Shown here piece by piece: positions 13,544 to 51,239 of a stretch of 64,000 bases of DNA. The stretch is from Escherichia phage TH09: sequence record MT446387.1; one strand, written 5' to 3'. The position numbers were made by a program, and so were the translations under genes. The stretch's first letter is position 1. Each line of letters opens with the position of its first letter. The notes under the pieces were generated by a model. The model ran no database searches. It saw only the letters and a list, made by a program, of their open reading frames with translations, and was not told where the DNA came from.

Positions 13544-14366
<823 letters not shown>

Positions 14367-14386
14367 AATAATACGTGGCGGAAAAT

Positions 14387-14734
14387 ATGAATTTTAATTA
14401 TTACCCTATTCTATTAGAAAAAGACGCGAAACAACCAAAATGGCAGGGTCCTCAGTTTATTAAAGGCGTCTATCAATTAATAGTTCCTAAAGACAAAATT
14501 TATAGCAGTTGTTTCACTGAATCCGCTTGCAGTATTTTTGGTAATAGTTCTCCGTATTGGAATTTTGATATAAAGCTTGACAGAAATATCGATATTTGGT
14601 TGAAAGCTATGGATATTGGTAATATCACGTTTGATGAGAATAATTATCATATTATTGGTCGCTTTTCCAAACGCGGTAAAGAATTATATTTCACGCCTGA
14701 AATTGAGAGAAAATTTGATGCTAAACCGTATTGA
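14387..14734 (+). CDS. Hypothetical protein (115 aa) between frd and td
   Basis: ATG at 14387 (track begins at GTG 14375); no recognisable motif. Confidence 0.5.
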   Translation: MNFNYYPILLEKDAKQPKWQGPQFIKGVYQLIVPKDKIYSSCFTESACSIFGNSSPYWNFDIKLDRNIDIWLKAMDIGNITFDENNYHIIGRFSKRGKELYFTPEIERKFDAKPY

Positions 14735-14779
14735 TTATTTAGCTTCATAAAATGTATTATAATTTATATAAGGTACTAA

Positions 14780-19716: not shown

Positions 19717-21304
<1,588 letters not shown>

Positions 21305-21307
21305 GCT

Positions 21308-21361
21308 GTTTACAAGTCCCTCGTGTTGTGTTATAGTAATCTTACTGACATAACATGAGGA
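21308..21361 (+). repeat. 54-bp early promoter/leader cassette, copy A (identical to 37055-37108)
   Basis: gtttacaagtccctcgtgttgtgttatagtaatcttactgacataacatgagga; GTTTAC -35, TATAGT -10, 9-bp inverted repeat cctcgtgtt/aacatgagg whose right arm overlaps the SD. Confidence 0.9.
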
Positions 21362-21368
21362 CTTTATG

Positions 21369-21872
21369 ATGGATTTGCAGCTTATTACTACTGAGATGGT
21401 CGTTGAAGCATACGGTGATACTACAGATGGGATTTCTGTATTTAAAGGAAATCGTCGAGTTGGATATATCACCGATCTTAAGAAAGATTTAGCTAAGCAA
21501 GTCAAGCGGAAAACGACCATTAAAGAATATCGAAATCGTCGTCTTGAGCAAGCCCGTGATATGCTTCCTGATGCGGTTGAGGAGATGAAAGTCTTTTTAG
21601 AAAATCAGCTTGCGAAATATGATTGTGATGTGTTCATTAATCAGACTCAACCTAATGTTCATATTAACAACTGTAAATGCTATATCATCGTTAATCCTTT
21701 AACGGGAAAACATCGTCTTGGAATTAGTAATCCAAATCGTAGCGCATCGGATATGGCAGAAGATGTTGAGGCATGCTTTAAAATTTCTAAATCTCCGGCT
21801 GAACATCATATTTTAATTAACGGTCTTTCTCAAGACGATATTATAGAGGTTATTAAAACTTTATGCAATTAA
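21369..21872 (+). CDS. alc: Alc, host transcription shutoff protein (167 aa)
   Basis: Starts MDLQLITTEMVVEAYGD; size as T4 Alc; synteny. Confidence 0.8.
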   Translation: MDLQLITTEMVVEAYGDTTDGISVFKGNRRVGYITDLKKDLAKQVKRKTTIKEYRNRRLEQARDMLPDAVEEMKVFLENQLAKYDCDVFINQTQPNVHINNCKCYIIVNPLTGKHRLGISNPNRSASDMAEDVEACFKISKSPAEHHILINGLSQDDIIEVIKTLCN

Positions 21873-22216
21873 GTAATACGACAGCAGGCTTGCTATTAAT
21901 TGTAATTGCATTAGGCGGAACTTCTTTAATTTTAAAAAATAAAATTGAAAGATTAGAAACGTCTGTTGTAGAAATTACAAAAACGGCCAATGAAAACGCT
22001 TTAGCATTAAATAATTTGCGAATTCAGTATAATTATATTGATGCGATGAATAATAAAAATCGTGAGGCAATTGCTGCTATTGAGCGTGAAAATGAAAAAC
22101 TGCGCAAAGACGCAAAGAAGGCGGATGTGGTGGCTCATAAGCCAGGATTGGTTGAAAAACAAATCAACAACTCCTTCAACAAGTTCACAGAAGACATCCA
22201 GGACCTTTCTAAATGA
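21863..22216 (+). CDS. i-spanin (117 aa)
   Basis: N-terminal TM helix (TAGLLLIVIALGGTSLIL) then coiled-coil; corresponds to T4 pseT.3. Confidence 0.7.
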   Translation: MQLSNTTAGLLLIVIALGGTSLILKNKIERLETSVVEITKTANENALALNNLRIQYNYIDAMNNKNREAIAAIERENEKLRKDAKKADVVAHKPGLVEKQINNSFNKFTEDIQDLSK

Positions 22217-22512
22217 TTAAACTATCAGCAGTAATATTATCTATTGGTCTTCTAGTTGGTTGTTCGACAAAGCCTCTAGAAGTAAAGAAAGAAACAGTTC
22301 ATCCTAATTGGCCTGTGCAAATAAAGTCATATGATGAAGCTAAACTATCTTGGCAGGTTAAAGTTATTGACGGTAAAGCTTGGGTCGGTATGCCATTTGA
22401 AGATTCTCAGGAATTTCGTATTTGGCTTAATGATGTAAAACGATATGTACATGACCAGAAAACTATGATATGTTATTATCGTCAAGAGTTAAAAGAGGAT
22501 AAATGTAAATGA
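22213..22512 (+). CDS. o-spanin lipoprotein (99 aa)
   Basis: Signal peptide with lipobox LLVGC-S; overlaps the i-spanin stop; corresponds to T4 pseT.2. Confidence 0.7.
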   Translation: MIKLSAVILSIGLLVGCSTKPLEVKKETVHPNWPVQIKSYDEAKLSWQVKVIDGKAWVGMPFEDSQEFRIWLNDVKRYVHDQKTMICYYRQELKEDKCK

Positions 22513-22735
22513 TTTCGTGGCATCAATTTGAACATCTCAAAGGATTGATTTATGAATCCGAGATGGCTGCAATGATTTATGGACGCCAGATTCAGCGGTT
22601 AGAATCTTTACCTCCAACTAATGATGTTTTATTAGCTCAATCACGTGCTAATCTTAAAAATGAATACCAAAATAAGTGGGGTAAAGCATCTAAAGACCTA
22701 CATGATTATATTCAATCATTGGTTGAGAAAAATAA

Positions 22736-22739
<4 letters not shown>
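22509..22739 (+). CDS. Hypothetical protein (76 aa)
   Basis: ORF track; ATGA overlap. Confidence 0.55.
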
Positions 22740-23960
<1,221 letters not shown>

Positions 23961-23961
<1 letters not shown>

Positions 23962-24158
23962 TGGCGTGGCATCATGAAACTTGGTCTATTGTTATTGTAA
24001 ATAGTGGTTTAGTTGGTACTAGTAATGGGCAATTTTGTGTATTCACTAGTGAAATCAGAGCTTGGGAGGAATGCCTTAAATTAAGAGAAAAGAATCCTGA
24101 TATTGAACTAACAGTAAAGAAAACTAAACTGCCTTTACCATGGAAAACTTATGAATAA
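23961..24158 (+). CDS. Hypothetical protein (65 aa)
   Basis: ATG overlapping the pseT stop (taATG); track shows a longer 23931 start. Confidence 0.45.
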
Positions 24159-24351
24159 TATAGAAAAGATTTATCGTCTTTGTGATAAAATTGAAAAAGA
24201 AAAGAAATATCTATTTTGTTTATGGCCTATTGTTGATGGAAGAGTAGGCTTAGATGTTCTTGATTATGAAACAGAAGATAAAGTAGATGGTTCAACTTTT
24301 GATAATGCGTTGGATGTTATTGATTGGCTTGAAGAAAATTATGTGAGGTAA
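24151..24351 (+). CDS. Hypothetical protein (66 aa)
   Basis: ORF track. Confidence 0.5.
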   Translation: MNNIEKIYRLCDKIEKEKKYLFCLWPIVDGRVGLDVLDYETEDKVDGSTFDNALDVIDWLEENYVR

Positions 24352-24353
24352 AT

Positions 24354-24629
24354 ATGTTTCCGACTTATTCTAAAATCGTAGAAGTAGTGTTTAGCCAAAT
24401 TATCGCTAATAATATGTTTGAAAAGCTTGATAACGCAGCCGAGCTTCGAATTCATGCTCAAGTGACTCATGTATTGAATACTTTGCTTCCAGACCAGGTT
24501 GATTCTATTGCCATTACGCTGTATCCAGGTTCCGCACATATCATTGTCGTATTCGGTCTTGATGCTGAGCTAGTCATCAAAGGCGATATTCGTTTTGAAT
24601 CACAGACATCAGAATTCAAGGCAATTTAA
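24354..24629 (+). CDS. Hypothetical protein (91 aa)
   Basis: ORF track. Confidence 0.5.
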   Translation: MFPTYSKIVEVVFSQIIANNMFEKLDNAAELRIHAQVTHVLNTLLPDQVDSIAITLYPGSAHIIVVFGLDAELVIKGDIRFESQTSEFKAI

Positions 24630-24631
24630 CA

Positions 24632-24670
24632 GTTTACTTTACGGTAGAGTTGTGATATTATAGCTCTACC
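24632..24670 (+). promoter_or_regulatory. Early promoter cassette with inverted repeat
   Basis: GTTTAC -35; inverted repeat GGTAGAG(24643-49)/CTCTACC(24664-70) with -10 TATTAT in the loop; SD and ATG 24692 follow. Confidence 0.55.
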
Positions 24671-24691
24671 AAAACAAATGAGGAAATTGAA

Positions 24692-25219
24692 ATGAGCAAA
24701 TGGTTTGAAGAAGATAAGGTTTATCGCTTTAAAGCTGGATATAAAGATATTTTTAATGAAACTTGCGGGGCTAATAAACGAATTGCCAAGTTTATTGGGG
24801 AAAATTCATTTAAAGTAAAAATAGATTCTGCGAAAAATGTTATTAGCATTAAACGTGAAATTGATGACTGCTGGTATAAAGCTGTTGATGTAATGGGCGA
24901 ATCTTATAAAGATAGCCCGTTATTTTCAATTACTTATATGTCAGAATATTATTTTTTCGAAGAAGTTCAAAAAGATGACTCTATCAGTAAATTTGAAATT
25001 AAAACTGATAAAGAAATTAAGTGGAAAGTAGTAGGTATTACTGGTTGTATGTTCTATATCTATGCTCAAACTGATACGAAGGAAGAAGCTAAAAAGAAAG
25101 CTCTAGAATATCTTGAAGAGTATGAAGAAGGCCCGGTAATGATTACTCAAGATGCTGAATTAGTTTCTGTCAAATTAGTTAAAAACGTTGAAAGTAAGGA
25201 GCTGGGATCAACATGCTAA
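24692..25219 (+). CDS. Hypothetical protein (175 aa)
   Basis: ORF track; SD gagga. Confidence 0.6.
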   Translation: MSKWFEEDKVYRFKAGYKDIFNETCGANKRIAKFIGENSFKVKIDSAKNVISIKREIDDCWYKAVDVMGESYKDSPLFSITYMSEYYFFEEVQKDDSISKFEIKTDKEIKWKVVGITGCMFYIYAQTDTKEEAKKKALEYLEEYEEGPVMITQDAELVSVKLVKNVESKELGSTC

Positions 25220-25449
25220 GTGAAAAACCGATTACTGTTAAAGAATTCCAAGAAAAAGTTAAACTATTTGCTCAGGAATTGGTAAATAAGGTTTCTGAAC
25301 GATTTCCAGAAACATCGGTTCGTGTTATTACCGAAACTCCTCGTTCAGTATTAGTAATTGTGAATCCAGGTGATGGTGACCAAATAACACATCTCAAATT
25401 GGATTTTGATGGATTAGTTGAAGCACAAAGGGTGTATGGCGTACTATGA
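25213..25449 (+). CDS. Hypothetical protein (78 aa)
   Basis: ORF track. Confidence 0.55.
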   Translation: MLSEKPITVKEFQEKVKLFAQELVNKVSERFPETSVRVITETPRSVLVIVNPGDGDQITHLKLDFDGLVEAQRVYGVL

Positions 25450-25784
25450 TGAATTTAACTGATATAATTGATAATTGTCTTGAAAATGATACTGGCGATC
25501 ATAGAGCGCTTGACTCTGACACAGCACAGTTCATTAGAATAACTTTAATGAATGACACTCTAGTGAATAGTATTCATCCTTCTGTGTATGATGCTATTAT
25601 TGTGACGAAGTATCCAGTTGAGCTTCACAAAAAGATGGTTGGCGCAATTTTTATTGATAAGAAAAACCGCTTTAAAGATGGGCAGAATATAATTAGTTCT
25701 GTTATTAAAAGTATAACTAAACTTCGTCATGAAATTTATCGTGTTGAAACTGCTAAATCTGCTTATCTGGTGATTATGAAATGA
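25446..25784 (+). CDS. Hypothetical protein (112 aa)
   Basis: ORF track. Confidence 0.55.
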   Translation: MMNLTDIIDNCLENDTGDHRALDSDTAQFIRITLMNDTLVNSIHPSVYDAIIVTKYPVELHKKMVGAIFIDKKNRFKDGQNIISSVIKSITKLRHEIYRVETAKSAYLVIMK

Positions 25785-26362
25785 AAGCGAGTACAGTACT
25801 TCAAATTGCATATTTAGTATCACAAGAATCAAAATGTTGCTCCTGGAAGGTAGGAGCAGTAATTGAAAAGAATGGACGTATTATTTCTACCGGATATAAT
25901 GGTTCACCTGCAGGCGGTGTGAATTGCTGCGATTATGCTGCTGAGCAAGGTTGGTTGCTGAATAAGCCTAAACATACTATCATTCAAGGTCATAAGCCTG
26001 AATGCGTATCGTTTGGTTCAACTGATCGTTTTGTTTTGGCGAAAGAACACCGTAGTGCTCACTCTGAATGGTCGTCTAAAAATGAAATTCATGCTGAACT
26101 AAATGCGATTTTGTTTGCTGCACGAAACGGTTCTTCAATTGAAGGTGCTACTATGTATGTAACACTTTCTCCTTGTCCGGATTGTGCAAAAGCCATAGCT
26201 CAATCTGGAATTAAAAAACTGGTTTATTGCGAAACATACGATAAGAATAAACCTGGCTGGGATGATATTCTGCGAAATGCAGGTATTGAAGTGTTTAATG
26301 TTCCTAAGAAAAACTTGAATAAGTTAAATTGGGAAAATATCAACGAATTCTGTGGTGAATAA
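25781..26362 (+). CDS. cd: dCMP deaminase (193 aa)
   Basis: Zinc-binding deaminase motifs HAE ... PCPDC; length as T4 Cd. Confidence 0.9.
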   Translation: MKASTVLQIAYLVSQESKCCSWKVGAVIEKNGRIISTGYNGSPAGGVNCCDYAAEQGWLLNKPKHTIIQGHKPECVSFGSTDRFVLAKEHRSAHSEWSSKNEIHAELNAILFAARNGSSIEGATMYVTLSPCPDCAKAIAQSGIKKLVYCETYDKNKPGWDDILRNAGIEVFNVPKKNLNKLNWENINEFCGE

Positions 26363-26598
26363 TGAAATTTCGTTTGGTACAGCTCACAGCAATTAGTTCT
26401 TATTCTAACGAGAACATTTCATTTGCTGTAGAGTATAAGAAGTATTTTTTCTCTAAATGGAAACAGTATTATAAGTCAGAATGGGTTTGTATTAATAGGC
26501 CGTATAGTTGGAAATCTGATTTAGAAAAATGCCAAAAGTTGCTTTCCACTCTTAAAGAACGTGGAACAACCCATATTAAAACTGTAATAGGTAAATAA
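26362..26598 (+). CDS. Hypothetical protein (78 aa)
   Basis: ORF track; ATGA overlap with cd. Confidence 0.55.
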   Translation: MKFRLVQLTAISSYSNENISFAVEYKKYFFSKWKQYYKSEWVCINRPYSWKSDLEKCQKLLSTLKERGTTHIKTVIGK

Positions 26599-26907
26599 AT
26601 GAAATTGACAACTGAACAGAAAGTAGCAATTCGTGAAATTTTGAAAACTAAATTGTCCATGGGTATTTCAAACGTGGTTTTTGAAAAGTCTGATGGTACT
26701 ATTCGTACCATGAAAGGCACTCGTGATGCAGACTTTATGCCAACCATGCAAACTGGTAAATTGACTGAATCTACTCGGAAAGAATCTACTGATATGATTC
26801 CGGTATTTGATGTTGAGCTCGGTGCATGGCGAGGTTTTTCTATTGACAAATTGATTTCCGTTAATGGCATGAAAGTTGAGCATTTGCTTCAATTTATTGG
26901 TAAATAA
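26599..26907 (+). CDS. Hypothetical protein (102 aa)
   Basis: ORF track. Confidence 0.55.
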   Translation: MKLTTEQKVAIREILKTKLSMGISNVVFEKSDGTIRTMKGTRDADFMPTMQTGKLTESTRKESTDMIPVFDVELGAWRGFSIDKLISVNGMKVEHLLQFIGK

Positions 26908-26908
26908 A

Positions 26909-26933
26909 TGCTTTAAGAATTATTTGTTATTAT
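26909..26933 (+). promoter_or_regulatory. MotA-type middle promoter upstream of gene 31
   Basis: TGCTTTA MotA box, 12-nt spacer, TATTAT -10. Confidence 0.45.
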
Positions 26934-26963
26934 TAATTCATCTGTTAACAAAAAGGAAAAACG

Positions 26964-27299
26964 ATGTCTGAAGTACAACAGCTACCAATTCGTGCTGTCG
27001 GTGAATATGTTATTTTAGTTTCTGAACCTGCACAAGCCGGTGATGAAGAAGTTACAGAATCAGGACTTATTATCGGTAAACGTGTCCAAGGTGAAGTTCC
27101 TGAACTGTGTGTAATTCACTCTGTTGGTCCTGATGTTCCTGAAGGTTTCTGTGAAGTTGGTGATTTGACTTCTCTTCCAGTTGGTCAAATTCGAAACGTT
27201 CCACATCCTTTTGTAGCTCTGGGTCTTAAGCAGCCAAAAGAAATTAAGCAAAAATTCGTTACCTGTCACTATAAAGCTATTCCGTGTCTTTATAAGTGA
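26964..27299 (+). CDS. 31: Co-chaperonin gp31, GroES analogue (111 aa)
   Basis: Length and synteny as T4 gp31. Confidence 0.85.
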
Positions 27300-27307
27300 T
27301 ATAAATA
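27300..27307 (+). promoter_or_regulatory. Late promoter TATAAATA immediately after the gene 31 stop
   Basis: Exact TATAAATA on plus strand; rIII lies about 120 nt downstream. Confidence 0.4.
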
Positions 27308-27425
27308 ATAATATGAATTGAGTTTCAATTCTATGTGGTAGTCTACAACTGAGAGATCTGTCGAAAGAAGATGAAATTCAGAAGAACGTGACTACCGAGT
27401 TTTAATCTCTAACGAGAATTTTTAA

Positions 27426-27674
27426 ATGATTAAACAATTACAACACGCTCTTGAACTGCAACGAAACGCATGGAATAATGGTCACGAAAACTATGGCGCA
27501 TCTATTGATGTTGAAGCCGAAGCTCTTGAAATCCTGCGTTATTTCAAACATCTGAATCCTGCTCAAACTGCATTAGCTGCTGAGCTTCAGGAAAAAGATG
27601 AACTTAAATATGCTAAGCCTCTGGCTTCTGCTGCACGAAAAGCAGTTCGTCACTTTGTGGTAACACTGAAGTAA
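27426..27674 (+). CDS. rIII: rIII lysis-inhibition accessory protein (82 aa)
   Basis: 82 aa as T4 RIII; synteny after gene 31. Confidence 0.8.
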   Translation: MIKQLQHALELQRNAWNNGHENYGASIDVEAEALEILRYFKHLNPAQTALAAELQEKDELKYAKPLASAARKAVRHFVVTLK

Positions 27675-27868
27675 TTTATTGGAGAGTCACTGCCTTAGTG
27701 TGAAGTTAAAACGAGGAGCCGTCGAACTTTGTTTTACGGTGTACCTCTTGAATGTTGACGAGGTTTATGGTTATCCTGTCGGTAAATAATCAAAACCTAA
27801 GTACCCCTTGAGGGCTTTCGCAGGCAATGCCAATAAGTCCTGCATTTTCATTTAAAAGAGAATTTATA

Positions 27869-28045
27869 ATGGCAAAACAAGCTAAAGCAAAGAAAGCAGT
27901 TGAAAAGAAAGTTGGTGATTCTAAACGCGCTGGTTACAAGCGTGGGTCGAACTCTCGTATCAATCAAACTGTTGAGAAGATCATGCGCCGAGCACGTGCG
28001 GTTCTTCGAGATGATGCTTCTCGTTTTGGTAAGCAGAAAGCATAA
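27869..28045 (+). CDS. Small basic protein (58 aa; alternative ATG 27827 gives 72 aa)
   Basis: Lys/Arg-rich MAKQAKAKKAVEKKVGDSKRAGYKRG...; followed by a strong terminator. Confidence 0.5.
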   Translation: MAKQAKAKKAVEKKVGDSKRAGYKRGSNSRINQTVEKIMRRARAVLRDDASRFGKQKA

Positions 28046-28050
28046 GTTGA

Positions 28051-28074
28051 GGACTCCTTCGGGAGTCCTTTTTT
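28051..28074 (+). terminator. Intrinsic terminator
   Basis: GGACUCC-UUCG-GGAGUCC followed by UUUUUU. Confidence 0.85.
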
Positions 28075-28098
28075 ATTTTCCAAAGATTGCACAAAGTT

Positions 28099-28147
28099 GT
28101 TTACAGTATGATTCCTTTGTGATAGTATTATCTTACACAAACAAAGG
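28099..28147 (+). promoter_or_regulatory. Early promoter cassette with inverted repeat
   Basis: GTTTAC -35; inverted repeat CCTTTGT(28114-20)/ACAAAGG(28141-47) with -10 TAGTAT in the loop; right arm overlaps SD AAGGAG; leader ends AGGAGAATAAAATG. Confidence 0.55.
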
Positions 28148-28155
28148 AGAATAAA

Positions 28156-28488
28156 ATGAAAACGATTAATCTGAACGCTGCAGTTAAAACTAAATGCTTC
28201 AATGGTAAATATGATGAAACTATGTGGTTCTTAATGGCAGTTGAAGGTGATATCATTGAAGTAGAAACAGCAGAAGGTATGGGAACAGATTTCACCTTTA
28301 CAATTCAAGTTCATAATTTCTTTACTGGTTGGATTTATGAATTGAATACAGTAATCGTTGGAAAAATTGAACAAAATGAATTGGGTGAATGGTATTATGT
28401 TACAGCTCGCCAACGTGCCGAACGCTTAATTGAGAAGATGAAAAAAGTTGGTAAACTTGACATGCAGCACTGGAAAGTAGTAAAATAA
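28156..28488 (+). CDS. Hypothetical protein (110 aa)
   Basis: ORF track; strong SD. Confidence 0.6.
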   Translation: MKTINLNAAVKTKCFNGKYDETMWFLMAVEGDIIEVETAEGMGTDFTFTIQVHNFFTGWIYELNTVIVGKIEQNELGEWYYVTARQRAERLIEKMKKVGKLDMQHWKVVK

Positions 28489-28490
28489 TT

Positions 28491-28530
28491 GTTTACTTTG
28501 GTACAGGATATGATATTATATACCTGTACC
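28491..28530 (+). promoter_or_regulatory. Early promoter cassette with inverted repeat
   Basis: GTTTAC -35; inverted repeat GGTACAGG(28500-07)/CCTGTACC(28523-30) with -10 TATTAT in the loop; leader ends AGGAGAATAAAAATG. Confidence 0.55.
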
Positions 28531-28556
28531 GCAATTAAACATCTAGGAGAATAAAA

Positions 28557-28922
28557 ATGAACTACATCAACTTTGAACGTAAATATGTTTCTAACGGTAT
28601 TGCAGGTTCTATTGATACTATCTGCCTTTGGAAACATCAAAATGGATCAGTATGCGAAATTGAACAGTATATGACTCCTAACTACGTTTATATACGATTT
28701 GAAAATGGCATTACGGTTTCAATCACGAAAGAAGGTTCTTCTTTTAAAATCGCATTAGATGATGATTTCCGTCAACGTGATTTAGGGACTCATCCTTGCT
28801 GGAATGGCGTTAATCGTAAGCTTCTGGTTAAAACTTGGATTCGTCATATTCTGAGTAATAGAGCTAAACCTGAGCATCTTGAAGCGATCTTTGATGTAGT
28901 TCTTAACGAATTTGATATTTAA
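28557..28922 (+). CDS. Hypothetical protein (121 aa)
   Basis: ORF track; strong SD. Confidence 0.6.
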   Translation: MNYINFERKYVSNGIAGSIDTICLWKHQNGSVCEIEQYMTPNYVYIRFENGITVSITKEGSSFKIALDDDFRQRDLGTHPCWNGVNRKLLVKTWIRHILSNRAKPEHLEAIFDVVLNEFDI

Positions 28923-28962
28923 AATAAAACAGGGGCTTCGGCCCCTTACTGAGGAAAATACT

Positions 28963-29250
28963 ATGTTTATGACTACTTATTTTGATAGCCGCAAAAATTT
29001 CTGTGAAGTGGTTTTCTCTAAGGCGCCTAAAGACCTTCCTGCTCATTTGCAACCTACCAGTGAATCGATTAAAAACTACGTTAATGTAGTCTGCCCTTTA
29101 GAATTCCGTACTGTAAATGGGCGCGATACTTTAGCTATCACTAAACTCAATCGTGAAATTGACATTGACCCTTCAATTGCGCGTGAAATTAACATTTCTG
29201 ATATTGGCGGCGGTAATGTTAAATCGCACGGTTTTCAGATGAGGTTCTAA
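28963..29250 (+). CDS. Hypothetical protein (95 aa)
   Basis: ATG 28963 with SD gagga (track start 28912 is TTG); preceded by hairpin GGGGC-uucg-GCCCC at 28933-28946. Confidence 0.55.
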   Translation: MFMTTYFDSRKNFCEVVFSKAPKDLPAHLQPTSESIKNYVNVVCPLEFRTVNGRDTLAITKLNREIDIDPSIAREINISDIGGGNVKSHGFQMRF

Positions 29251-29447
29251 TGAAATTCTTTTTAGGTCAAACTGTTGAATTAAAGGGAGTTGGTATACCT
29301 GGATTAATTTCTAAGGTTCTACCTCCATTTAAATGGAGTGGTATTCAAATAAAAGAGGCTTATATTGTTTCCTGGGTAGATGGAAATGAAGACCTTCGTA
29401 TGGGTGATGAATTATCTCCTATTTACGGATTAAAGGAATTAGTATGA
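29250..29447 (+). CDS. Hypothetical protein (65 aa)
   Basis: ORF track. Confidence 0.5.
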   Translation: MKFFLGQTVELKGVGIPGLISKVLPPFKWSGIQIKEAYIVSWVDGNEDLRMGDELSPIYGLKELV

Positions 29448-29650
29448 ATATAATTAATAAGATTTTTGGAATTCAGTACATTAAGGTCACATATAAAGTA
29501 ACAGATAAAAATCCATATACTGATGAACATGAAGAACCACAAGTTAAGTCTATTATATTAGAAAAGGACCCTAACTGGCCAGTTGAATTTCGTCTTCCTT
29601 GCTATGGTCATTGGGCTGATGTTGAAATTATAAGCATTGAAAATGTCTGA
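29444..29650 (+). CDS. Hypothetical protein (68 aa)
   Basis: ORF track. Confidence 0.5.
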   Translation: MNIINKIFGIQYIKVTYKVTDKNPYTDEHEEPQVKSIILEKDPNWPVEFRLPCYGHWADVEIISIENV

Positions 29651-30101
29651 GTTAGAGATTAGAAGCAATTTTAGGTGGCCATCATGTGCATTAAGTAATT
29701 TCGCCCAATGGCCTTTCGTCATGGATGGTATTCAATTTGGAGGTCTCGAAGGATTCCTCCAAGGGTGTAAGGTGAAAAATGTTGAACACCAACGTCGTAT
29801 ATTTGGATTATCCGATCTTGCCGCCCAACAAGCTGGAAGGTCTTATGCAAGAGCTCAGGACCGTGGCACGTTGTTCTGGCTTGGAGTTCCGTTTTCAAGA
29901 TATTCACCGGCGTGGAAAGAATTATACACAAATGCATATTTTGAAGCAGCGTTCCAAAACAAGGGCTTTCGCGATGCATTACTAGCCTCGAAAGGAAAAG
30001 TTTTGAAGCACAGCATGGCTAGTGGTCTAACAAAAGATGATACAATACTAACCGAAGCTGAATTTATTGATGTGTTAAACCTATTAAGAGACTCTCTATG
30101 A
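29643..30101 (+). CDS. YbiA/NADAR-like (DUF1768-like) protein (152 aa)
   Basis: ALSNFAQWPF...DG..F...EGFLQGCK, LAAQQAGRS and W...AYFEAAFQNKGFRDALLASKG resemble motifs I recall from E. coli YbiA; ATG 29643 (track start 29637 is TTG). Confidence 0.45.
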   Translation: MSELEIRSNFRWPSCALSNFAQWPFVMDGIQFGGLEGFLQGCKVKNVEHQRRIFGLSDLAAQQAGRSYARAQDRGTLFWLGVPFSRYSPAWKELYTNAYFEAAFQNKGFRDALLASKGKVLKHSMASGLTKDDTILTEAEFIDVLNLLRDSL

Positions 30102-30934
30102 AGCCTACTATTTTAACTGATATTGATGGAGTATGTTTAAGCTGGCAATCAGGACTTCCTTATTTTGCCCAGAAATATAATCTTCCGTTGGAACATATTT
30201 TAAAAATGATCCAAGATGAGAAATTTATTTCTCCAGGTAAACTTTTTAATTGTGATGAAGAACTTGGCGTCAAGTTAATTGAAAAATACAATCGTTCAGA
30301 TTTTATTCGTTACTTGTCTCCATATAAAGATGCCCTGTGTGTAATTAACAAATTAAAAGAAGATTATAATTTTGTAGCTGTTACAGCATTGGGTGATTCT
30401 ATTGACGCTCTGCTGAATCGTCAATTTAATTTGAATGCTCTTTTTCCTGGTGCCTTCTCAGAAGTATTGATGTGTGGTCATGATTCTTCAAAAGAAGAGT
30501 TGTTCAAAAAGGCAAAAGAGAAATATAACGTAATTTGTTATATTGACGATCTCGCTCACCATTGCGATCACGCGAGTGAAATATTAAATGTTCCTGTTTA
30601 TTGGATGGCTCGAGGGGAGCGTGACAGTATTCCAAAAACTGCACAGCGAGTTTATACATGGAATGATGTCGAGAATAAGCTTTTTCCATCGAAGGAAAAT
30701 AAAGAAAGTTTTGATAGTGAAAAAGTTATAAAAGATGTAATTGAGAAGATGATCAAAAACGATTCTTTTCCTTGGAACACTACCTGGAGAACTCCTGGAT
30801 TTAATCCTTATAATCCATATCATCCATATCAGACACATCCGTTTCAGACATGGAACTATATTAAACCTGGTGGCATAGAGTATTTGTATAATAGACCTAC
30901 TAGTGGTGATAATATTTTTCAAGGAGCATTTTAA
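30098..30934 (+). CDS. HAD-superfamily phosphatase-like protein (278 aa)
   Basis: N-terminal HAD motif I LTDIDGV; Pro/Tyr/His-rich C-terminal tail. Confidence 0.55.
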   Translation: MKPTILTDIDGVCLSWQSGLPYFAQKYNLPLEHILKMIQDEKFISPGKLFNCDEELGVKLIEKYNRSDFIRYLSPYKDALCVINKLKEDYNFVAVTALGDSIDALLNRQFNLNALFPGAFSEVLMCGHDSSKEELFKKAKEKYNVICYIDDLAHHCDHASEILNVPVYWMARGERDSIPKTAQRVYTWNDVENKLFPSKENKESFDSEKVIKDVIEKMIKNDSFPWNTTWRTPGFNPYNPYHPYQTHPFQTWNYIKPGGIEYLYNRPTSGDNIFQGAF

Positions 30935-31203
30935 TGTTTGTTGTTCATACTATTTATGAAAATGAAGGTAATACTACACGTGATTACGGTCACGTAAATC
31001 AATTTTTTAGATGCAATCCAGAATTCCGAGCTCAAAAAGACGAACGAATTTTTAAAAAATGTGTAGAGCAAGGTTTCATTTACGTCAAGCACTGGATGCA
31101 AGGAAATAAAGTTAGAACCACGTACCACAGGTCTTTGACTGAGCTTAATGATGAATTGATTTATAATAGAGCTGTAAACCAAACTCTAAAGGATGAACAA
31201 TGA
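30934..31203 (+). CDS. Hypothetical protein (89 aa)
   Basis: ORF track; ATGA overlaps. Confidence 0.5.
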   Translation: MFVVHTIYENEGNTTRDYGHVNQFFRCNPEFRAQKDERIFKKCVEQGFIYVKHWMQGNKVRTTYHRSLTELNDELIYNRAVNQTLKDEQ

Positions 31204-32663
31204 TTCTTAAAATTCTGAACGAAATAGCATCTATTGGTTCAACTAAGCAGAAGCAAGCAATTCTTGAAAAGAACAAAGATAATGAATTGCTTAAACGAGT
31301 ATATCGTCTGACTTATTCTCGTGGGTTACAGTATTATATCAAGAAATGGCCTAAACCGGGTATTGCTACCCAGAGTTTTGGAATGTTGACTCTTACCGAT
31401 ATGCTTGACTTCATTGAATTCACGTTAGCTACTCGGAAATTGACTGGAAATGCGGCAATTGAGGAATTAATTGGATATATCACCGATGGTAAAAAAGATG
31501 ATGTTGAAGTTTTGCGTCGAGTGATGATGCGAGACCTTGAATGCGGTGCTTCAGTATCTATTGCAAACAAAGTTTGGCCAGGTTTAATTCCTGAACAACC
31601 TCAAATGCTTGCAAGTTCTTATGATGAAAAAGGCATTAATAAGAATATCAAATTTCCAGCTTTTGCCCAGTTAAAAGCTGATGGAGCTCGGTGCTTTGCT
31701 GAAGTCAGAGGTGATGAATTAGATGATGTTCGTCTTTTATCACGAGCTGGTAATGAATATCTAGGATTAGATCTTCTTAAGGAAGAGTTAATTAAAATGA
31801 CCGCTGAAGCCCGCCAGATTCATCCAGAAGGTGTGTTAATTGATGGCGAATTGGTATACCATGAGCAAGTTAAAAAGGAGCCAGAAGGCCTAGATTTTCT
31901 TTTTAATGCTTATCCTGAAATTAGTAAAGCTAAAGAATTCGCCGAAGTAGCTGAATCACGTACTGCTTCTAATGGAATCGCTAATAAATCTTTAAAGGGA
32001 ACCATTTCCGAAAAAGAAGCACAATGCATGAAGTTTCAGGTCTGGGATTATGTTCCATTAGTAGAAATATATGGTCTTCCTGCATTTCGTTTAAAGTATG
32101 ATGTACGTTTTTCTAAACTAGAACAAATGACATCAGGCTATGATAAAGTAATTTTAATTGAAAACCAGGTAGTAAATAACCTAGATGAAGCTAAGGTAAT
32201 TTACAAAAAGTATATTGATCAAGGTCTTGAAGGTATTATTCTCAAAAACGTTGATGGGTTATGGGAAAATGCCCGTTCAAAAAATCTCTATAAATTTAAA
32301 GAAGTAATTGATGTTGATTTAAAAATTGTAGGAATTTATCCTCACCGTAAAGACCCTACTAAAGCAGGTGGATTTATTCTTGAGTCAGAGTGTGGAAAAA
32401 TTAAAGTAAATGCTGGTTCAGGCTTAAAAGATAAAGCCGGCGTAAAATCACATGAGCTTGACCGTACTCGCATTATGGAAAACCAAAATTATTATATTGG
32501 AAAAATTCTAGAGTGCGAATGCAACGGTTGGTTAAAATCTGATGGCCGCACTGATTACGTTAAATTATTTCTTCCGATTGCGATTCGTTTACGTGAAGAT
32601 AAAACTAAAGCTAATACATTCGAGGATGTATTTGGTGATTTTCATGAGGTAACTGGTCTATGA
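31200..32663 (+). CDS. 30: ATP-dependent DNA ligase (487 aa)
   Basis: Matches T4 DNA ligase from MILKILNEIASIGSTKQKQAILEKNKDNELLKRVYRL onward; adenylation lysine context QLKADGARC. Confidence 0.97.
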   Translation: MILKILNEIASIGSTKQKQAILEKNKDNELLKRVYRLTYSRGLQYYIKKWPKPGIATQSFGMLTLTDMLDFIEFTLATRKLTGNAAIEELIGYITDGKKDDVEVLRRVMMRDLECGASVSIANKVWPGLIPEQPQMLASSYDEKGINKNIKFPAFAQLKADGARCFAEVRGDELDDVRLLSRAGNEYLGLDLLKEELIKMTAEARQIHPEGVLIDGELVYHEQVKKEPEGLDFLFNAYPEISKAKEFAEVAESRTASNGIANKSLKGTISEKEAQCMKFQVWDYVPLVEIYGLPAFRLKYDVRFSKLEQMTSGYDKVILIENQVVNNLDEAKVIYKKYIDQGLEGIILKNVDGLWENARSKNLYKFKEVIDVDLKIVGIYPHRKDPTKAGGFILESECGKIKVNAGSGLKDKAGVKSHELDRTRIMENQNYYIGKILECECNGWLKSDGRTDYVKLFLPIAIRLREDKTKANTFEDVFGDFHEVTGL

Positions 32664-32848
32664 AAGCTTACTTAGAAACAATTGTCATTGCTCAAAAAGA
32701 AGGTGGAGATGTTTCTACTTCTGTATCACAAGTCATTCTCGAATTTGTAGATGCATACGCTTATAATAAATTTACAGAAACATTTGATGCCTATGAAAAA
32801 GGACCAAAGTTTGAAATATATCGTACTCTCTTACCACTAGATTACTAA
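32660..32848 (+). CDS. Hypothetical protein (62 aa)
   Basis: ORF track; ATGA overlap with the ligase stop. Confidence 0.5.
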   Translation: MKAYLETIVIAQKEGGDVSTSVSQVILEFVDAYAYNKFTETFDAYEKGPKFEIYRTLLPLDY

Positions 32849-32864
32849 AGGCCTTCGGGCCTTT
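32847..32864 (+). terminator. Terminator-like hairpin
   Basis: AAAGGCC-uucg-GGCCUUU followed by AAUUUU. Confidence 0.55.
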
Positions 32865-32869
32865 AATTT

Positions 32870-32877
32870 TATAAATA
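32870..32877 (+). promoter_or_regulatory. Late promoter TATAAATA upstream of the first Alt-like gene
   Basis: Exact TATAAATA about 23 nt upstream of ATG 32901; consistent with late expression of a packaged protein. Confidence 0.6.
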
Positions 32878-32900
32878 GAATAAACACTAGAGAGGCTATG

Positions 32901-34994
32901 ATGGAACTTATTACAGAATTATTTGACGAAGATACTACTCTTCCGATTACAAACTTAAATCCAAAGAAGAAAATACCGCAAATTTTTTCAGTTCACGTTG
33001 ATGATGCAATTGAACAGCCAGGCTTTCGTTTATGCACCTATACATCTGGAGGTGATACTAATCGCGATTTAAAGATGGGCGATAAAATGATGCATATTGT
33101 TCCTTTTACATTAACTGCTAAAGGTTCAATTGCTAAATTAAAAGGTCTTGGTCCAAGCCCAATTAATTATATCAATTCAGTTTTTACTGTTGCAATGCAA
33201 ACTATGCGTCAGTATAAAATTGATGCCTGTATGCTCCGTATTCTTAAGTCTAAAACCGCTGGTCAAGCTCGACAAATTCAAGTTATTGCTGATAGACTTA
33301 TCCGTAGTCGTTCAGGTGGTAGATACGTCCTTCTTAAGGAACTCTGGGATTACGATAAAAAGTATGCATATATTCTTATACATCGCAAAAATGTATCACT
33401 AGAAGACATTCCAGGAGTTCCGGAAATTAGTACCGAGCTCTTTACTAAAGTTGAATCAAAGGTCGGTGATGTTTATATCAATAAAGATACTGGAGCTCAA
33501 GTAACTAAAAATGAGGCAATTGCTGCATCTATTGCGCAAGAAAACGATAAACGTTCTGACCAAGCTGTAATCGTTAAAGTTAAAATTTCCCGTAGAGCAA
33601 TTGCACAAAGTCAATCATTAGAATCTTCTAGATTTGAAAGTGAATTATTCCAAAAGTATGAATCTACCGCAGCTAATTTCAATAAACCTGCTACGGCTCC
33701 TTTAATTCCCGAAGCAGAAGAAATGAAGCTTGGAATTAATTCATTAGCTTCTAAAACTAAAGCAGCAAAAATCATTGCCGAAGGAACTGCAGATGAACTT
33801 CATTATGACTATAAATTCTTTTCAAAAAGTGAGGTTAATGAAGTTTCTGAAAAAATTAAAGATGTAATTCTTAATGCGATTAAAAATGAACCAACTACTT
33901 CAATAAAATGTTTAGAGAAATACGCAGCAGCTGTAAATCAATTCTTTGAAGATTATAAAGATAAATGGCTTGCTAATCATAATAAAAATCGTAAAGGACA
34001 ACCAGATGAAGTCTGGGAAGAAATAACTAAAAATTCCTGGAACGCAGCAAAAACTAAATTCCTCAAACGAATGATTTACAGTTTTTCTGGAATTGGTGCT
34101 GGTCCAATGATTGATATTACTATTGCCCGCGATGGTTCTAAATATACTCCATCACAAAAGCGTGGCATTAGAGAATATTGCGGTTCAGGATATACTGACA
34201 TCAATAATCTTCTTTTAGGTCGTTACAATCCAGAACGATATGATGTAATGAGTGAAAAAGAAATTGAATCTGCTATAAATAACTTAGATTCAGCTTTTGA
34301 AAATGGTGACCGCATACCGGAAGGCATCACAGTTTATCGTGCTCAAAGTATGACTGCTCCTATATACGAAGCACTAGTTAAAAATAAAGTGTTCTATTTC
34401 AGAAATTTTGTATCTACTTCTTTAACTCCTATCATTTTTGGACGTTTTGGAATTACACATGCTGGTATTGGTCTTTTAGAACCAGAAGCTCGTAATGAAT
34501 TGACAGTTGATAAAAATGAAGAAGGAATAACTATTAATCCAAACGAAATAAGAGCGTATAAAGAAAATCCTGAATACGTTAAAGTTCAAATAGGATGGGC
34601 AATTGATGGAGCTCATAAAGTTAATGTTGTATATCCAGGAAGTCTCGGAATAGCAACAGAAGCTGAAGTTATTCTACCGCGCGGATTGATGGTCAAAGTT
34701 AATAAAATAACTGATGCTTCTAATAATGACGGAACCACGTCTAATAATACAAAACTCATTCAAGCTGAAGTTATGACCACGGAAGAGCTCACCGAATCGG
34801 TAATCTATGATGGAGACCATTTAATGGAAACCGGCGAAGTAGTTGCAATGACAGGTGATATTGAAATAGAAGACAGAGTTGACTTTGCATCATTTGTTTC
34901 ATCAAATGTTAAACAAAAAGTAGAATCATCTCTTGGAATTATTGCGTCTTGCATAGATATTACAAACATGCCTTACAAGTTCGTTCAAGGATAA
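32901..34994 (+). CDS. alt: Alt-like mono-ADP-ribosyltransferase, copy 1 (697 aa)
   Basis: N-terminus MELITELFDEDTTLPITNLNPKKKIPQIF; R-S-E type ART motifs VYRAQ, FVSTSL, EAEVIL; conserved C-terminal DGDHLMETGEV; I recognise the family but not which copy is T4 alt. Confidence 0.8.
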   Translation: MELITELFDEDTTLPITNLNPKKKIPQIFSVHVDDAIEQPGFRLCTYTSGGDTNRDLKMGDKMMHIVPFTLTAKGSIAKLKGLGPSPINYINSVFTVAMQTMRQYKIDACMLRILKSKTAGQARQIQVIADRLIRSRSGGRYVLLKELWDYDKKYAYILIHRKNVSLEDIPGVPEISTELFTKVESKVGDVYINKDTGAQVTKNEAIAASIAQENDKRSDQAVIVKVKISRRAIAQSQSLESSRFESELFQKYESTAANFNKPATAPLIPEAEEMKLGINSLASKTKAAKIIAEGTADELHYDYKFFSKSEVNEVSEKIKDVILNAIKNEPTTSIKCLEKYAAAVNQFFEDYKDKWLANHNKNRKGQPDEVWEEITKNSWNAAKTKFLKRMIYSFSGIGAGPMIDITIARDGSKYTPSQKRGIREYCGSGYTDINNLLLGRYNPERYDVMSEKEIESAINNLDSAFENGDRIPEGITVYRAQSMTAPIYEALVKNKVFYFRNFVSTSLTPIIFGRFGITHAGIGLLEPEARNELTVDKNEEGITINPNEIRAYKENPEYVKVQIGWAIDGAHKVNVVYPGSLGIATEAEVILPRGLMVKVNKITDASNNDGTTSNNTKLIQAEVMTTEELTESVIYDGDHLMETGEVVAMTGDIEIEDRVDFASFVSSNVKQKVESSLGIIASCIDITNMPYKFVQG

Positions 34995-34997
34995 ATC

Positions 34998-37055
34998 ATG
35001 GAACTTATTACAGAATTATTTGACGGCGCTTCGGCGCCGGTTGTTAACTTAAATCCTAAGCATAAAATACCGCAAATTTTTGCTATTCAAGCCGGCGAAG
35101 AAAGTGTGCTTCCTGGATTTAGATTTTGTACATACACCTCTGGCGGTGATACAAATAAAAACGTTAAGCCAGGCGATAAAATGATGCATATCGTAATGAT
35201 AGGTGTCAATGAGAAACTATCGCTCGTTAAACTTAAAAACTTGGGTGGAAATCCAATTGGTGTCATTAATGCGGTTTTTGATACTGCTCTTCAAACAATG
35301 AAACAGTATAAAATTGATGCATGCTTATTCCGCGTACTAAAGAGTAAAACAAATGGCGCAGCTCGTCAAATGCAAGTTATTGCTGACCGTTTAGTACGTA
35401 CTAAAGGAGCAGGTCGATATGCTCTTTTAAAGGAAATCTGGGATTACGATAAAAAGTATGCATATATTATGGTTTACCGTAAAAATGCCAATTTAGAAGA
35501 CATTCCAGGTGTACCTCCTATTTCAACTGAGTTATTCACAAAAGTTGAATCAAAGGTTGGTGATGTTTATGTAGACGTTAAAACAGGTAATGCTGTTCCT
35601 AAAGCTGTTGCTGTTGCTGCTTCTATTGCCTTAGAAAATGATAAGCGCACGGATCAAGCTGTTATTCAGAAAACTAAAATTAGTCGTCGATTAGCAGCAC
35701 AAGCTCAATATTCTACTGTTGATGCTTCACTTCAGGGTGATAGCTTCGCTGCTAAGAAATATCAAGAGTTTGAATCTAAAGTTCCGGTATATAAAGCAGA
35801 AGGACCAATGAACTCCGGGGTTATCCAGATTGGTTCAAACTTTAACAAAGGAGCTATCGGTGGTATGAGAAGTGCTTCTCGTTTTAAATCTAATGATTAT
35901 GAACTAGAAAGTTTCCGAAATCATATTGCATTAGCCCATGCGCGTTTACGTGATCCATCTATCAAGTTGCAGAGCGATATAACATATCAAGGTTCTCAAG
36001 AATATTTAAAGAATAAAGAATTCTTTGATTATAAAACTGATAAAATTTTAAGCGATCTTGCTGACATTAATATTTCTAATAGCTTTGATGTTATTAAGAA
36101 AATTATCAATGATTTAGTTAAAGGTTCTAAAGCTACACCAGATGAAAAGACAGCTATTATTCAATTTGTCATGAATGGCATTTATAAATTGATTAATGAA
36201 TCTGCCGCTCAGGCATATGAATACGCGAGCACCGAAGTAACTCCAAAAGGATTAACTCAAGCTGAATCTGATGTAATTGAAGATTATTGTGCAGATTCAT
36301 ATGTTGAAATGAACTCGTTCCTTTTGGGTAAACCAGATTCTACCCGCGAAGAATATATGGAACGAGCTATTAAACATATTGAGACGCTTGATTCTGCATT
36401 CGCTAAAGGTTCAGTTCTTCCTCCAGGAACTACACTTTACCGTGGACAAGAAGTTACATTTAAAACTTTGCGTCATAACATTGAAAACAAAATGTTCTAT
36501 TTCAAGAACTTCGTATCCACATCGCTTAAACCAAATATCTTCGGTGAGCATGGTAAAAACTATATGGCCTTAGATGATTCCGGCGCAGTATTTTCTGGTG
36601 AAGGAGAAGGTTCCGTTGATGCAGAAGATTTGATGCATATGGGTAGTCATTCTACATATGCTAGTGAAGATGCCGAAACTAGCGTGGGTATGGTAATTAA
36701 AGGAGCTGAGCGAATCAAAGTTATCGTTCCAGGTCATTTATCAGGATTTCCATCAGAAGCTGAAGTTATTCTACCACGTGGAATTTTACTGAAGATTAAT
36801 AAAGTAAGTACGTACTTTATGAAAGAAACTGCTTATAACAAGTATCTAATCGAAGGTACAATCGTTCCTCCTTCTGAACAATTAGAGGAATCAGTATATG
36901 ATGGCGACCATTTGATGGAAACTGGTGAAGTTCGTCCAATGACTGGATTTAATCAATTCCTTGTCGAAGAATCAAAAGAAGAGGAAAACGAAGTTTCTCA
37001 AATCTTAGCTTCTTTGGTTAACATTAACGGAATGTCTAAAAAGTTCAAAATGTAG
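34998..37055 (+). CDS. Alt-like mono-ADP-ribosyltransferase, copy 2 (685 aa), tandem paralog
   Basis: Same N-terminal 200 aa architecture as copy 1 (MELITELFDG...), diverged middle, same ART motifs LYRGQ, FVSTSL, EAEVIL and DGDHLMETGEV. Confidence 0.8.
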   Translation: MELITELFDGASAPVVNLNPKHKIPQIFAIQAGEESVLPGFRFCTYTSGGDTNKNVKPGDKMMHIVMIGVNEKLSLVKLKNLGGNPIGVINAVFDTALQTMKQYKIDACLFRVLKSKTNGAARQMQVIADRLVRTKGAGRYALLKEIWDYDKKYAYIMVYRKNANLEDIPGVPPISTELFTKVESKVGDVYVDVKTGNAVPKAVAVAASIALENDKRTDQAVIQKTKISRRLAAQAQYSTVDASLQGDSFAAKKYQEFESKVPVYKAEGPMNSGVIQIGSNFNKGAIGGMRSASRFKSNDYELESFRNHIALAHARLRDPSIKLQSDITYQGSQEYLKNKEFFDYKTDKILSDLADINISNSFDVIKKIINDLVKGSKATPDEKTAIIQFVMNGIYKLINESAAQAYEYASTEVTPKGLTQAESDVIEDYCADSYVEMNSFLLGKPDSTREEYMERAIKHIETLDSAFAKGSVLPPGTTLYRGQEVTFKTLRHNIENKMFYFKNFVSTSLKPNIFGEHGKNYMALDDSGAVFSGEGEGSVDAEDLMHMGSHSTYASEDAETSVGMVIKGAERIKVIVPGHLSGFPSEAEVILPRGILLKINKVSTYFMKETAYNKYLIEGTIVPPSEQLEESVYDGDHLMETGEVRPMTGFNQFLVEESKEEENEVSQILASLVNINGMSKKFKM

Positions 37056-37108
37056 TTTACAAGTCCCTCGTGTTGTGTTATAGTAATCTTACTGACATAA
37101 CATGAGGA
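37055..37108 (+). repeat. 54-bp early promoter/leader cassette, copy B (identical to 21308-21361)
   Basis: Perfect 54/54 identity with copy A; begins at the stop codon of Alt-like copy 2. Confidence 0.9.
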
Positions 37109-37115: not shown

Positions 37116-37406
37116 ATGAAATCTTCTTTGCGCTTTTTAGGTCAAGAACTTGTAGTTGAAGGCGTTATTCCTGCTGATAATGCTTTTAATGAAGCAGTTT
37201 ACGATGAATTTATCAAAATTTTTGGAACAGATAAAAAGTTCGGAATTTTTCCTTCTGAAAATTTTTCAAAGCCAGAACAGACTGAAAGCATTTTCCAAGG
37301 TGTAGTAACAGGTAAATTTGAGTCAGAAGCTCCGGTAAAAATTGAAGTTTATATTGAAGACAGTTTAGTTGCTTCAGTTGCTGCTTTTATTTCATTCCGT
37401 AAATAA
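37116..37406 (+). CDS. Hypothetical protein (96 aa)
   Basis: ORF track; driven by repeat copy B; ends at a bidirectional terminator. Confidence 0.55.
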   Translation: MKSSLRFLGQELVVEGVIPADNAFNEAVYDEFIKIFGTDKKFGIFPSENFSKPEQTESIFQGVVTGKFESEAPVKIEVYIEDSLVASVAAFISFRK

Positions 37407-37412
37407 AAATAT

Positions 37413-37430
37413 GGGGACCTTTCGGTCCCC
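37413..37430. terminator. Bidirectional terminator between convergent genes
   Basis: GGGGACC-uuuc-GGUCCCC flanked by A/T-rich runs on both sides. Confidence 0.75.
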
Positions 37431-37434
37431 ATTG

Positions 37435-51215: not shown

Positions 51216-51219
51216 ATAA

Positions 51220-51239
51220 AAGGGACCTTTCGGTCCCTT
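51220..51239. terminator. Bidirectional terminator between rnlB and gene 24
   Basis: AAGGGACC-uuuc-GGUCCCUU with U-rich flanks. Confidence 0.75.

Follow-up and report, generated by a model that had tools for sequence, protein, structure and literature searches.

Why do two early genes of a T4-like phage, which lie far apart, carry one and the same promoter and leader? The question is raised by a 64,000-nt stretch of Escherichia phage TH09 (record MT446387.1), here called the window, in which a 54-mer, GTTTACAAGTCCCTCGTGTTGTGTTATAGTAATCTTACTGACATAACATGAGGA, stands at 21308-21361 upstream of alc and again at 37055-37108 upstream of alt.-3, both on the + strand and with 0 mismatches between the copies. 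This is the longest perfect repeat of the window (repeat family D7), in direct orientation at a spacing of 15,747 bp. The flanks diverge from the first base on either side (taagct before and ctttatgatgg after copy 1; aatgta before and acacaaaatg after copy 2). Even with 3 mismatches allowed the window has no third site, and no match arose in 100 dinucleotide-preserving shuffles. Other GTTTAC-type early promoters in the window reach merely 53-66% identity to the 54-mer. The original prediction, made from the sequence, had described a perfect 54-bp promoter/leader before alc and before a 96-aa open reading frame (ORF) that follows the Alt genes, in a phage whose promoters are otherwise diverged. 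All of this is confirmed, gene assignments included, and the 54-mer is not a sequence common to early promoters at large. The same prediction took the repeat for a product of recent copying or ongoing gene conversion and for a possible source of rearrangement; these ideas fared less well, as discussed below.

The best explanation, at a probability of roughly 0.6, is that the 54-mer is a self-contained early cassette of the promoter-early stem-loop (PeSL) kind, which masks its Shine-Dalgarno (SD) sequence in read-through RNA, derives from alc, and is kept by constraint together with occasional exchange between the copies. Three lines of evidence bear on it: the anatomy of the promoter and its predicted RNA fold, the comparison with related genera, and the distribution of alleles in Tequatrovirus.

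Each copy holds a complete sigma-70 early promoter. At copy 1 (21309-21337, + strand) the -35 hexamer TTTACA occupies 21309-21314 and is preceded by the T4-typical G at 21308; after a 17-bp spacer, which ends with the TG of an extended -10 at 21329-21330, comes the -10 hexamer TATAGT at 21332-21337. Copy 2 (37056-37084, + strand) has the same TTTACA, 17-bp spacer, TG, and TATAGT. The two hexamers match in 10 of 12 positions at both copies, with TG directly before the -10. Within the cassette the -10 covers positions 25-30 and the SD sequence GAGGA positions 50-54; for alc the latter was read from the sequence at 21357-21361 (+ strand). The ATG follows GAGGA at 4-7 nt in alc, where ATG codons stand at 21366 and 21369, and at 7 nt in alt.-3. 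Judged by promoter geometry, 7 nt past the -10, transcription would start at 21344 in copy 1 and correspondingly at 37091 in copy 2 (both + strand), near cassette position 37; the start must fall at about 35-39. By eye and unscored, an A/T-rich stretch, aaaaagttcaaaatgta, lies directly upstream of copy 2, and the A-tracts of copy 1, gaaaaattataaaaaattt, are more distant, about 20-40 nt upstream of the -35 hexamer.

Very strong early promoters built of UP, -35, TGn, and -10 elements are a described T4 class (PMC2988021). The cassette resembles these Pe promoters in its -35 GTTTAC, TGn extended -10, TAnnnT -10, and early-class downstream genes; it differs from them generally in being a true repeat, which only this pair of window promoters forms. 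In T4, alc and alt.-3 are both classed as early by RNA and protein, whereas the RNAs of alt, alt.-1, and alt.-2 are classed as middle and the Alt and RnlA proteins as late (PMC9697503 supplement). With both downstream genes early and the upstream alt RNA middle, these classes fit translation that is confined to the early period.

The feature that the original prediction overlooked is a predicted hairpin, which accounts for the exact extent of the repeat, -35 to SD sequence. The sense RNA of the cassette is predicted to fold into 18 bp, with positions 12-31 paired to 36-53, at -22 kcal/mol (z -5.81); 0 of 200 dinucleotide shuffles were as stable. In copy 1 (21319-21360, + strand) the anti-SD CCUC at 21319-21322 pairs with GAGG of the SD at 21357-21360 around a loop at 21339-21342; in copy 2 (37066-37107, + strand) CCUC at 37066-37069 pairs with GAGG at 37104-37107, and the hairpin is also predicted within a 94-nt context (z -3.6). 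CCUC opens the 5' arm inside the promoter spacer, so that the hairpin spans the -10, and both predicted transcription starts lie inside it. The antisense strand folds more weakly (-12.8 kcal/mol, z -2.3) because three of the sense pairs are G-U. The whole window gave 0 Rfam matches at gathering thresholds, and a literature search found no paper on an alc leader hairpin.

The position of the promoter within the hairpin suggests how the cassette might work. Copy 1 separates rnlA (20144-21304, + strand) from alc, beginning 3 nt past the rnlA stop and ending 4-7 nt short of the alc start. Copy 2 separates the second alt paralogue (34998-37055, + strand) from alt.-3 and shares one base, its first G, with the alt stop codon TAG. 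The terminator scan called no terminator-like site between rnlA and copy 1 or between alt and copy 2. RNA that reads through from rnlA or alt would contain positions 12-53 and fold them, burying the SD. RNA from the cassette's own promoter (GTTTACA -35, 17-bp spacer, TGn, TATAGT) would begin within the hairpin just past the loop, at about position 37, and keep a leader of about 13 nt to GAGGA; it would lack the 5' arm and leave the SD free. The predicted cost of opening the region from the SD to the AUG is in line with this: 9.8 kcal/mol in read-through RNA versus 1.8 in own-promoter RNA for alc, and 12.2 versus 2.4 for alt.-3. Only the immediate-early transcripts that start in the cassettes would then yield Alc and Alt.-3; middle or late RNA reading through from upstream would yield neither. 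Only three of the eight GTTTAC promoters of the window show a large difference of this kind (both copies and one at 28099), so the switch appears specific rather than a generic property of early promoters.

Switches of this architecture are known in T4. In e, soc, 49, and I-TevI the promoter lies inside an SD-sequestering hairpin, which limits translation to the proximal transcript (PMC3014915). The cassette shares the promoter within the hairpin, the proximal transcript without a 5' arm, and the predicted masking of the SD in the longer transcript. The promoters of those four genes are late, so that early and middle read-through is silenced and translation is late only; the cassette promoter, unlike them, is an immediate-early sigma-70 promoter, for which the model predicts early-only translation. 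In the terms of this model the cassette is a functional variant of the e/soc/49/I-TevI type that stands outside the described late-promoter set. It predicts T4 early starts near NC_000866 136300(-) and 123057(-), and would place both Alc, a key protein of host shut-off, and the uncharacterised Alt.-3 under a control that allows translation in the early period only.

The second line of evidence comes from outgroups and concerns the origin of the pair. Six related genera (Gaprivervirus, Mosigvirus, Dhakavirus, Karamvirus, Kanagawavirus, and Marfavirus) have separate GTTTAC promoters for alc and alt.-3, and within a genus the two are 65-80% identical (four genera compared) versus the 53-66% background. 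The alt.-3 promoters lack an SD hairpin in all six (z -0.1 to -1.6), and a CAC..GGA.GTG spacer is common to five of them, Kanagawavirus being the exception. SD hairpins are found on the alc side. In Dhakavirus the spacer pairs with the SD as UCUCCUCAU/AUGAGGAGA (-17.6 kcal/mol, z -3.8), and in Karamvirus as UCUCCGUUUUUG/CAAAAACGGAGA (-20 kcal/mol, z -5.0). Gaprivervirus has a different SD hairpin (z -3.0), for which the comparison is less reliable, the locus being annotated as two alc-like coding sequences (CDSs). The arm sequences of the alc hairpins are quite different between genera and SD complementarity is kept.

These comparisons make it likely that the alc cassette overwrote the alt.-3 promoter in an ancestor of Tequatrovirus. 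Sequence identity alone was tried as a criterion of direction and proved inconclusive (the 54-mer is 75% identical to the Dhakavirus alc promoter versus 73% to its alt.-3 promoter, background 53-66%), so the proposed direction rests mainly on structure. The sequence upstream of the Tequatrovirus alt.-3 copy, TTCAAAATGTAGTTTACAA, is identical to that upstream of Dhakavirus alt.-3, and the 3' motif ACATGAGGA is shared as well. Because the end motifs already existed at both loci, the replaced patch would be the interior, about 37 nt (positions 9-45 or so) of native alc type, and the exchange would have ended within motifs that both promoters already shared, GTTTACAA and ACATGAGGA. Since then the joint demands of promoter, hairpin, and SD may have preserved both copies, together with occasional exchange between the two. 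The idea that a regulatory cassette was copied between loci is thus probably right, as judged by the outgroups, and the event is ancient.

The full combination, in which a conserved self-insulating alc cassette with the e/soc/49/I-TevI polarity reversed was moved to the unrelated alt.-3 by a patch of about 37 nt between GTTTACAA and ACATGAGGA, is put forward tentatively, at somewhat less than even odds. If it is true, promoter-leader cassettes would be a mobile unit of regulatory evolution in T4-type phages, and the alt.-3 locus would offer a clean natural example of one such cassette replacing another at a distant site.

The third line of evidence is the distribution of the pair. The window belongs to Tequatrovirus, in an orientation opposite to the T4 map; its closest matches are phages JLBYU31, JLBYU24, and JLBYU22, at 100%. 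A blastn search with the 54-mer returned 997 places in 499 phage records, each of them T4-like, with identity never below 92.6%. There are two copies per genome and none beyond; the single exception is a partial 113-kb record. An IMG/VR scan gave 5 loci, too few for population analysis, and GenBank phage records were used instead. In T4 (NC_000866) the copies lie at 136283-136336 and 123040-123093 and are 53/54 identical to each other. Base-by-base reading of 13 genomes found the pair in direct orientation every time, at spacings of 13,243-15,821 bp and with the same boundaries. Since the pair occurs throughout the records and its boundaries agree in the genomes read, the duplication predates the sampled diversity of the genus, and the recent copying proposed earlier is contradicted.

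Nor is zero divergence special. Alleles were counted by megablast with 40-mers, every 28-nt word of which covers a variable site, and these counts distinguish one copy from both copies but not which locus carries the allele. The A32 core, that of this window, has 112 copies in 102 records, with both copies in 10 and one locus only in about 92. The most common core, G32, has 476 copies in 338 records (both in 138); the 33A core has 57 copies in 55 records (both in 2), and the 27C core 143 copies in 138 records (both in 5). Identical 40-nt cores at both loci thus occur in about 155 of 499 genomes, and the A/A state of the window is a 2% minority among the records. By base-level reading, A32 occurs at alc only in PinkRuby and PhiZZ30, at alt.-3 only in Kha5h and ZN18, and at both loci here. 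Perfect identity in this phage is one allele combination among several.

Twelve haplotypes were seen, and among them there is no fixed difference between the loci. Six positions vary at alc, and five of the six carry the same alternative base at alt.-3 (12A, 16A, 27C, 32A/G, and 33A), a pattern that suggests repeated exchange between the copies. All 12 haplotypes retain the hairpin, at -17.2 to -23.7 kcal/mol. The hairpin gains pairs with 27C and 11T and has A-U in place of G-U with 16A and 40A; variants at 32, 33, and 34 sit in its loop, and 15T is compensatory with 50A.

Several observations weigh against the proposed cassette, its mechanism, or its history. The literature search found no T4 data set of 5' ends or transcription start sites. 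Three variants (12A, 29A, and 40T) weaken the hairpin. Covariation within Tequatrovirus is not significant: a single compensatory pair was seen, and 88 of 500 shuffles scored at least as high. Because that signal is too thin, support for the helix comes from thermodynamics and from the divergence of the arms between genera. The outgroups are not uniform either: the UCCUUG/CAAGGA pairing of spacer and SD in Marfavirus alc is weak (z -1.6), a large hairpin over the -10 of Kanagawavirus alc ends 8 nt short of the SD, and the Mosigvirus alc promoter has no hairpin. The last resembles the alt.-3 type (80% identity to the alt.-3 promoter of the same genus), and Mosigvirus may have undergone the opposite replacement. 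The near-equal identity of the 54-mer to the two Dhakavirus promoters, given above, likewise fails to single out alc as the source. The A32 allele stands at both loci in 10 genomes where at most 6.3 are expected under independence, so that the loci are nearly independent within genomes. And a PeSL stem-loop of phage RB49 was shown to have terminator/attenuator activity, not translational masking (PMC2839356).

The alternative that survives best accepts a single ancient copying and denies any later exchange: purifying selection alone would have kept the copies alike, and the shared polymorphisms would be parallel mutations. It is rated as less probable than exchange, though well worth keeping. 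Parallel mutation remains a serious alternative because the positions that vary are those under no structural constraint (loop 32-34, bulge 27, and the changes from G-U to A-U at 16 and 40), and the weak association of alleles within genomes fits it too. On the other side stand the five shared variable positions, two of them transversions (12 C>A and 33 T>A); the genome L007, which has the 16A+27C combination at both loci; and the very active recombination of T4-type phages, including experimentally shown recombination between PeSLs. The gene conversion that the original prediction called ongoing therefore gains something from the shared positions and loses something from the near-independence of allele states within genomes; the case for it is weak overall.

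The tufA and tufB genes of bacteria are an example of concerted evolution by ectopic gene conversion. The cassette pair is comparable in having two dispersed copies, shared polymorphisms, and no fixed difference between loci. It differs from tufA/tufB in that the segment is near the minimum length for efficient recombination and in that homogenisation within genomes is weak, alleles assorting almost independently.

The next alternative concerns function. PeSLs are early-promoter cassettes of T4-type phages with a stem-loop between the -35 and -10 or over the -10, an SD and ATG at the 3' end, and, in T4/PST, the consensus TTTACW-N17-TAYWAT; their stem-loops are regarded by the authors as terminators/attenuators, and recombination between PeSLs was shown experimentally, its crossovers mapping to the interval from the -10 to the SD/ATG (Arbiol et al. 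2010, PMC2839356; Comeau et al. 2014, PMC4122927). The 54-mer is like a PeSL in its sigma-70 early promoter, stem-loop over the -10, and 3' SD and start codon, perhaps in an A/T-rich upstream sequence, and in being repeated in the genome as a proposed substrate of homologous recombination. Its inner stem AGTA-loop-TACT also resembles the AGNA-loop-TCNT reported for PST/T4 PeSLs, and the replacement of the alt.-3 promoter interior between shared end motifs fits exchange at PeSL boundaries; it speaks for the proposal, made with PeSLs, that regulatory cassettes recombine as units in T4-type genomes. PeSLs form loosely conserved families, 1-4 kb apart around ORFans in hyperplastic regions. This pair, in contrast, is 89-100% identical, lies 13-16 kb apart, and brackets essential genes; moreover, the SD is part of the predicted stem and no U tract is present, which suggests translational rather than transcriptional insulation. 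The kind of element is already known, both from PeSLs and from promoter-in-hairpin switches, and what the model adds as a plausible hypothesis is early-only insulation and transplantation to alt.-3.

By analogy with PeSLs, the stem-loop might instead terminate or attenuate upstream transcripts and so insulate transcription, not translation. The hairpin is strong, it is followed at the alc copy by CUUUAU, and insertion of an RB49 PeSL stem-loop cut downstream lacZ expression about as much as the T1 rrnB terminator did (PMC2839356). Against this, the scan for terminators called none at either copy, as far as sequence can tell, and the alt.-3 copy continues with AACACAAAAUG, which has no U tract. 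The 3' arm also ends exactly in the SD, and the SD pairing conserved at alc across genera fits masking of the ribosome-binding site better. Termination is thus an unlikely replacement for masking, and the two roles do not exclude each other.

Far less probable is that the dyad acts as DNA, either as an operator for a dimeric regulator or as a cruciform, co-regulating alc and alt.-3 while the RNA fold is incidental. The dyad does span the -10 and the start, where repressors often bind, and other early promoters of the window carry dyads over the -10; yet the three sense G-U pairs and the much poorer antisense fold point to sense RNA, the arm sequences change completely between genera with SD complementarity kept, and no candidate protein is known. 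Weakest of all is a recent duplication or recent gene conversion in this particular phage, which the 0 differences over 54 bp and the shared state of the closest relatives JLBYU31 and JLBYU24 might speak for and which, as a founding event, is already refuted by two copies in essentially all 499 Tequatrovirus records including T4, with the same boundaries in the genomes read, by an A32 distribution close to random assortment, and by another 138 genomes with identical 40-nt G32 cores.

The repeat had also been proposed as a substrate for deletion or inversion of the block between its copies. As the copies are direct, a deletion is conceivable and an inversion impossible. The block of 13-16 kb contains pseT, cd, gene 31, rIII, gene 30 (DNA ligase), and alt, and a deletion would remove genes 30 and 31, which are essential in T4. 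A duplication of about 15 kb is larger than the T4 terminal redundancy. For these two reasons viable products of unequal exchange are not expected. Among database genomes no deletion or duplication product between the copies was found; all 13 genomes read base by base keep both direct copies, and none of the 13 shows a change of gene content bounded by them. The repeat is no sign of genome instability or of anything that happened recently in this phage.

Other GTTTAC promoters of the window also carry folds. The cassette at 28099-28158, before a 110-aa ORF at 28156-28488 (T4 30.8), has a similar SD-masking fold of different sequence, whose arms are UUCCUUUGUG, located in the spacer of the promoter, and CACAAA..AAGGAG at the SD; opening from SD to AUG is predicted to cost 10.0 kcal/mol in read-through RNA versus 0.3 in own-promoter RNA. 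The promoters that begin at 12873, 24632, and 28491 have strong dyads with the -10 at their centre (-15 to -16 kcal/mol; simple shuffles give z -3.8 to -5.9). These dyads leave the SD unmasked and look like PeSL-type stem-loops with some other role.

The genes around the two copies are as follows. The rnlA reading frame (RNA ligase 1, gene 63), identified by its ORF and annotated homologues, probably starts in truth at about 20180, since the annotated homologues are 1125 nt long. Downstream of copy 1, alc (21366-21872, + strand), the host transcription inhibitor, matches PF17527 (E 4e-91) and annotated homologues. Copy 2 is preceded by two full-length genes for Alt ADP-ribosyltransferase (PF03496) in tandem, at 32898-34994 (698 aa) and 34998-37055 (685 aa). 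The two agree at 97% over their first 31 nt (32898-32928 and 34995-35025) and at about 70% over other stretches. Short remnants are all that is left of the second alt copy in T4 (alt.-1/alt.-2) and ELT1 (a 204-nt CDS), and an annotated Alt.-2 fragment is present in PD112, which points to repeated loss of this copy. Downstream of copy 2, alt.-3 (T4 name; 37116-37406, + strand) encodes 96 aa of unknown function and matches PF17602 (DUF5498, E 1e-64). A bidirectional terminator hairpin at 37411-37432 closes this one-gene unit, which faces gene 54. Repeat D14 hinted at paralogy between Alt.-3 and the 65-aa ORF at 29250-29447, an idea dropped on the BLASTP result (E 0.048 over 15 residues).

Two outgroup loci show annotation peculiarities at alc. 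In Mosigvirus AV112, whose annotated alc CDS ends at locus coordinate 14271, the annotated start, ATGGTTTACAAACAC, falls on the -35 of the alc promoter; it is probably placed about 60 nt too far upstream, and ATGAATATGCAATTG is likely the real start. In Gaprivervirus VR20 (locus 14106-14856) two adjacent alc-like CDSs of 504 and 234 nt flank a degenerate remnant, GGTTACAA...CTACTAATGAGGA, which suggests that the alc 5' region was duplicated or rearranged locally.

Elsewhere in the window, a stem GGGACC-loop-GGTCCC is common to three terminator hairpins at 37399-37429, 51207-51237, and 52565-52595 (D9), the first of which is the bidirectional terminator after alt.-3. Positions 48213-49631 encode 472 aa with Ig/PKD-like domains (Pfam), downstream of a 226-aa ORF; gene order makes Hoc the probable identity of this protein and inh that of the ORF. 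The probable Hoc gene has a 288-nt tandem duplication (48477-48764 and 48765-49052, 76% identical; D2), equivalent to one Ig-like domain more than in the 1131-nt 'large head outer capsid protein' gene of PD112. At 10-97 the window also has three 30-nt tandem units, 75-82% identical (D11), which probably lie within a coding repeat.

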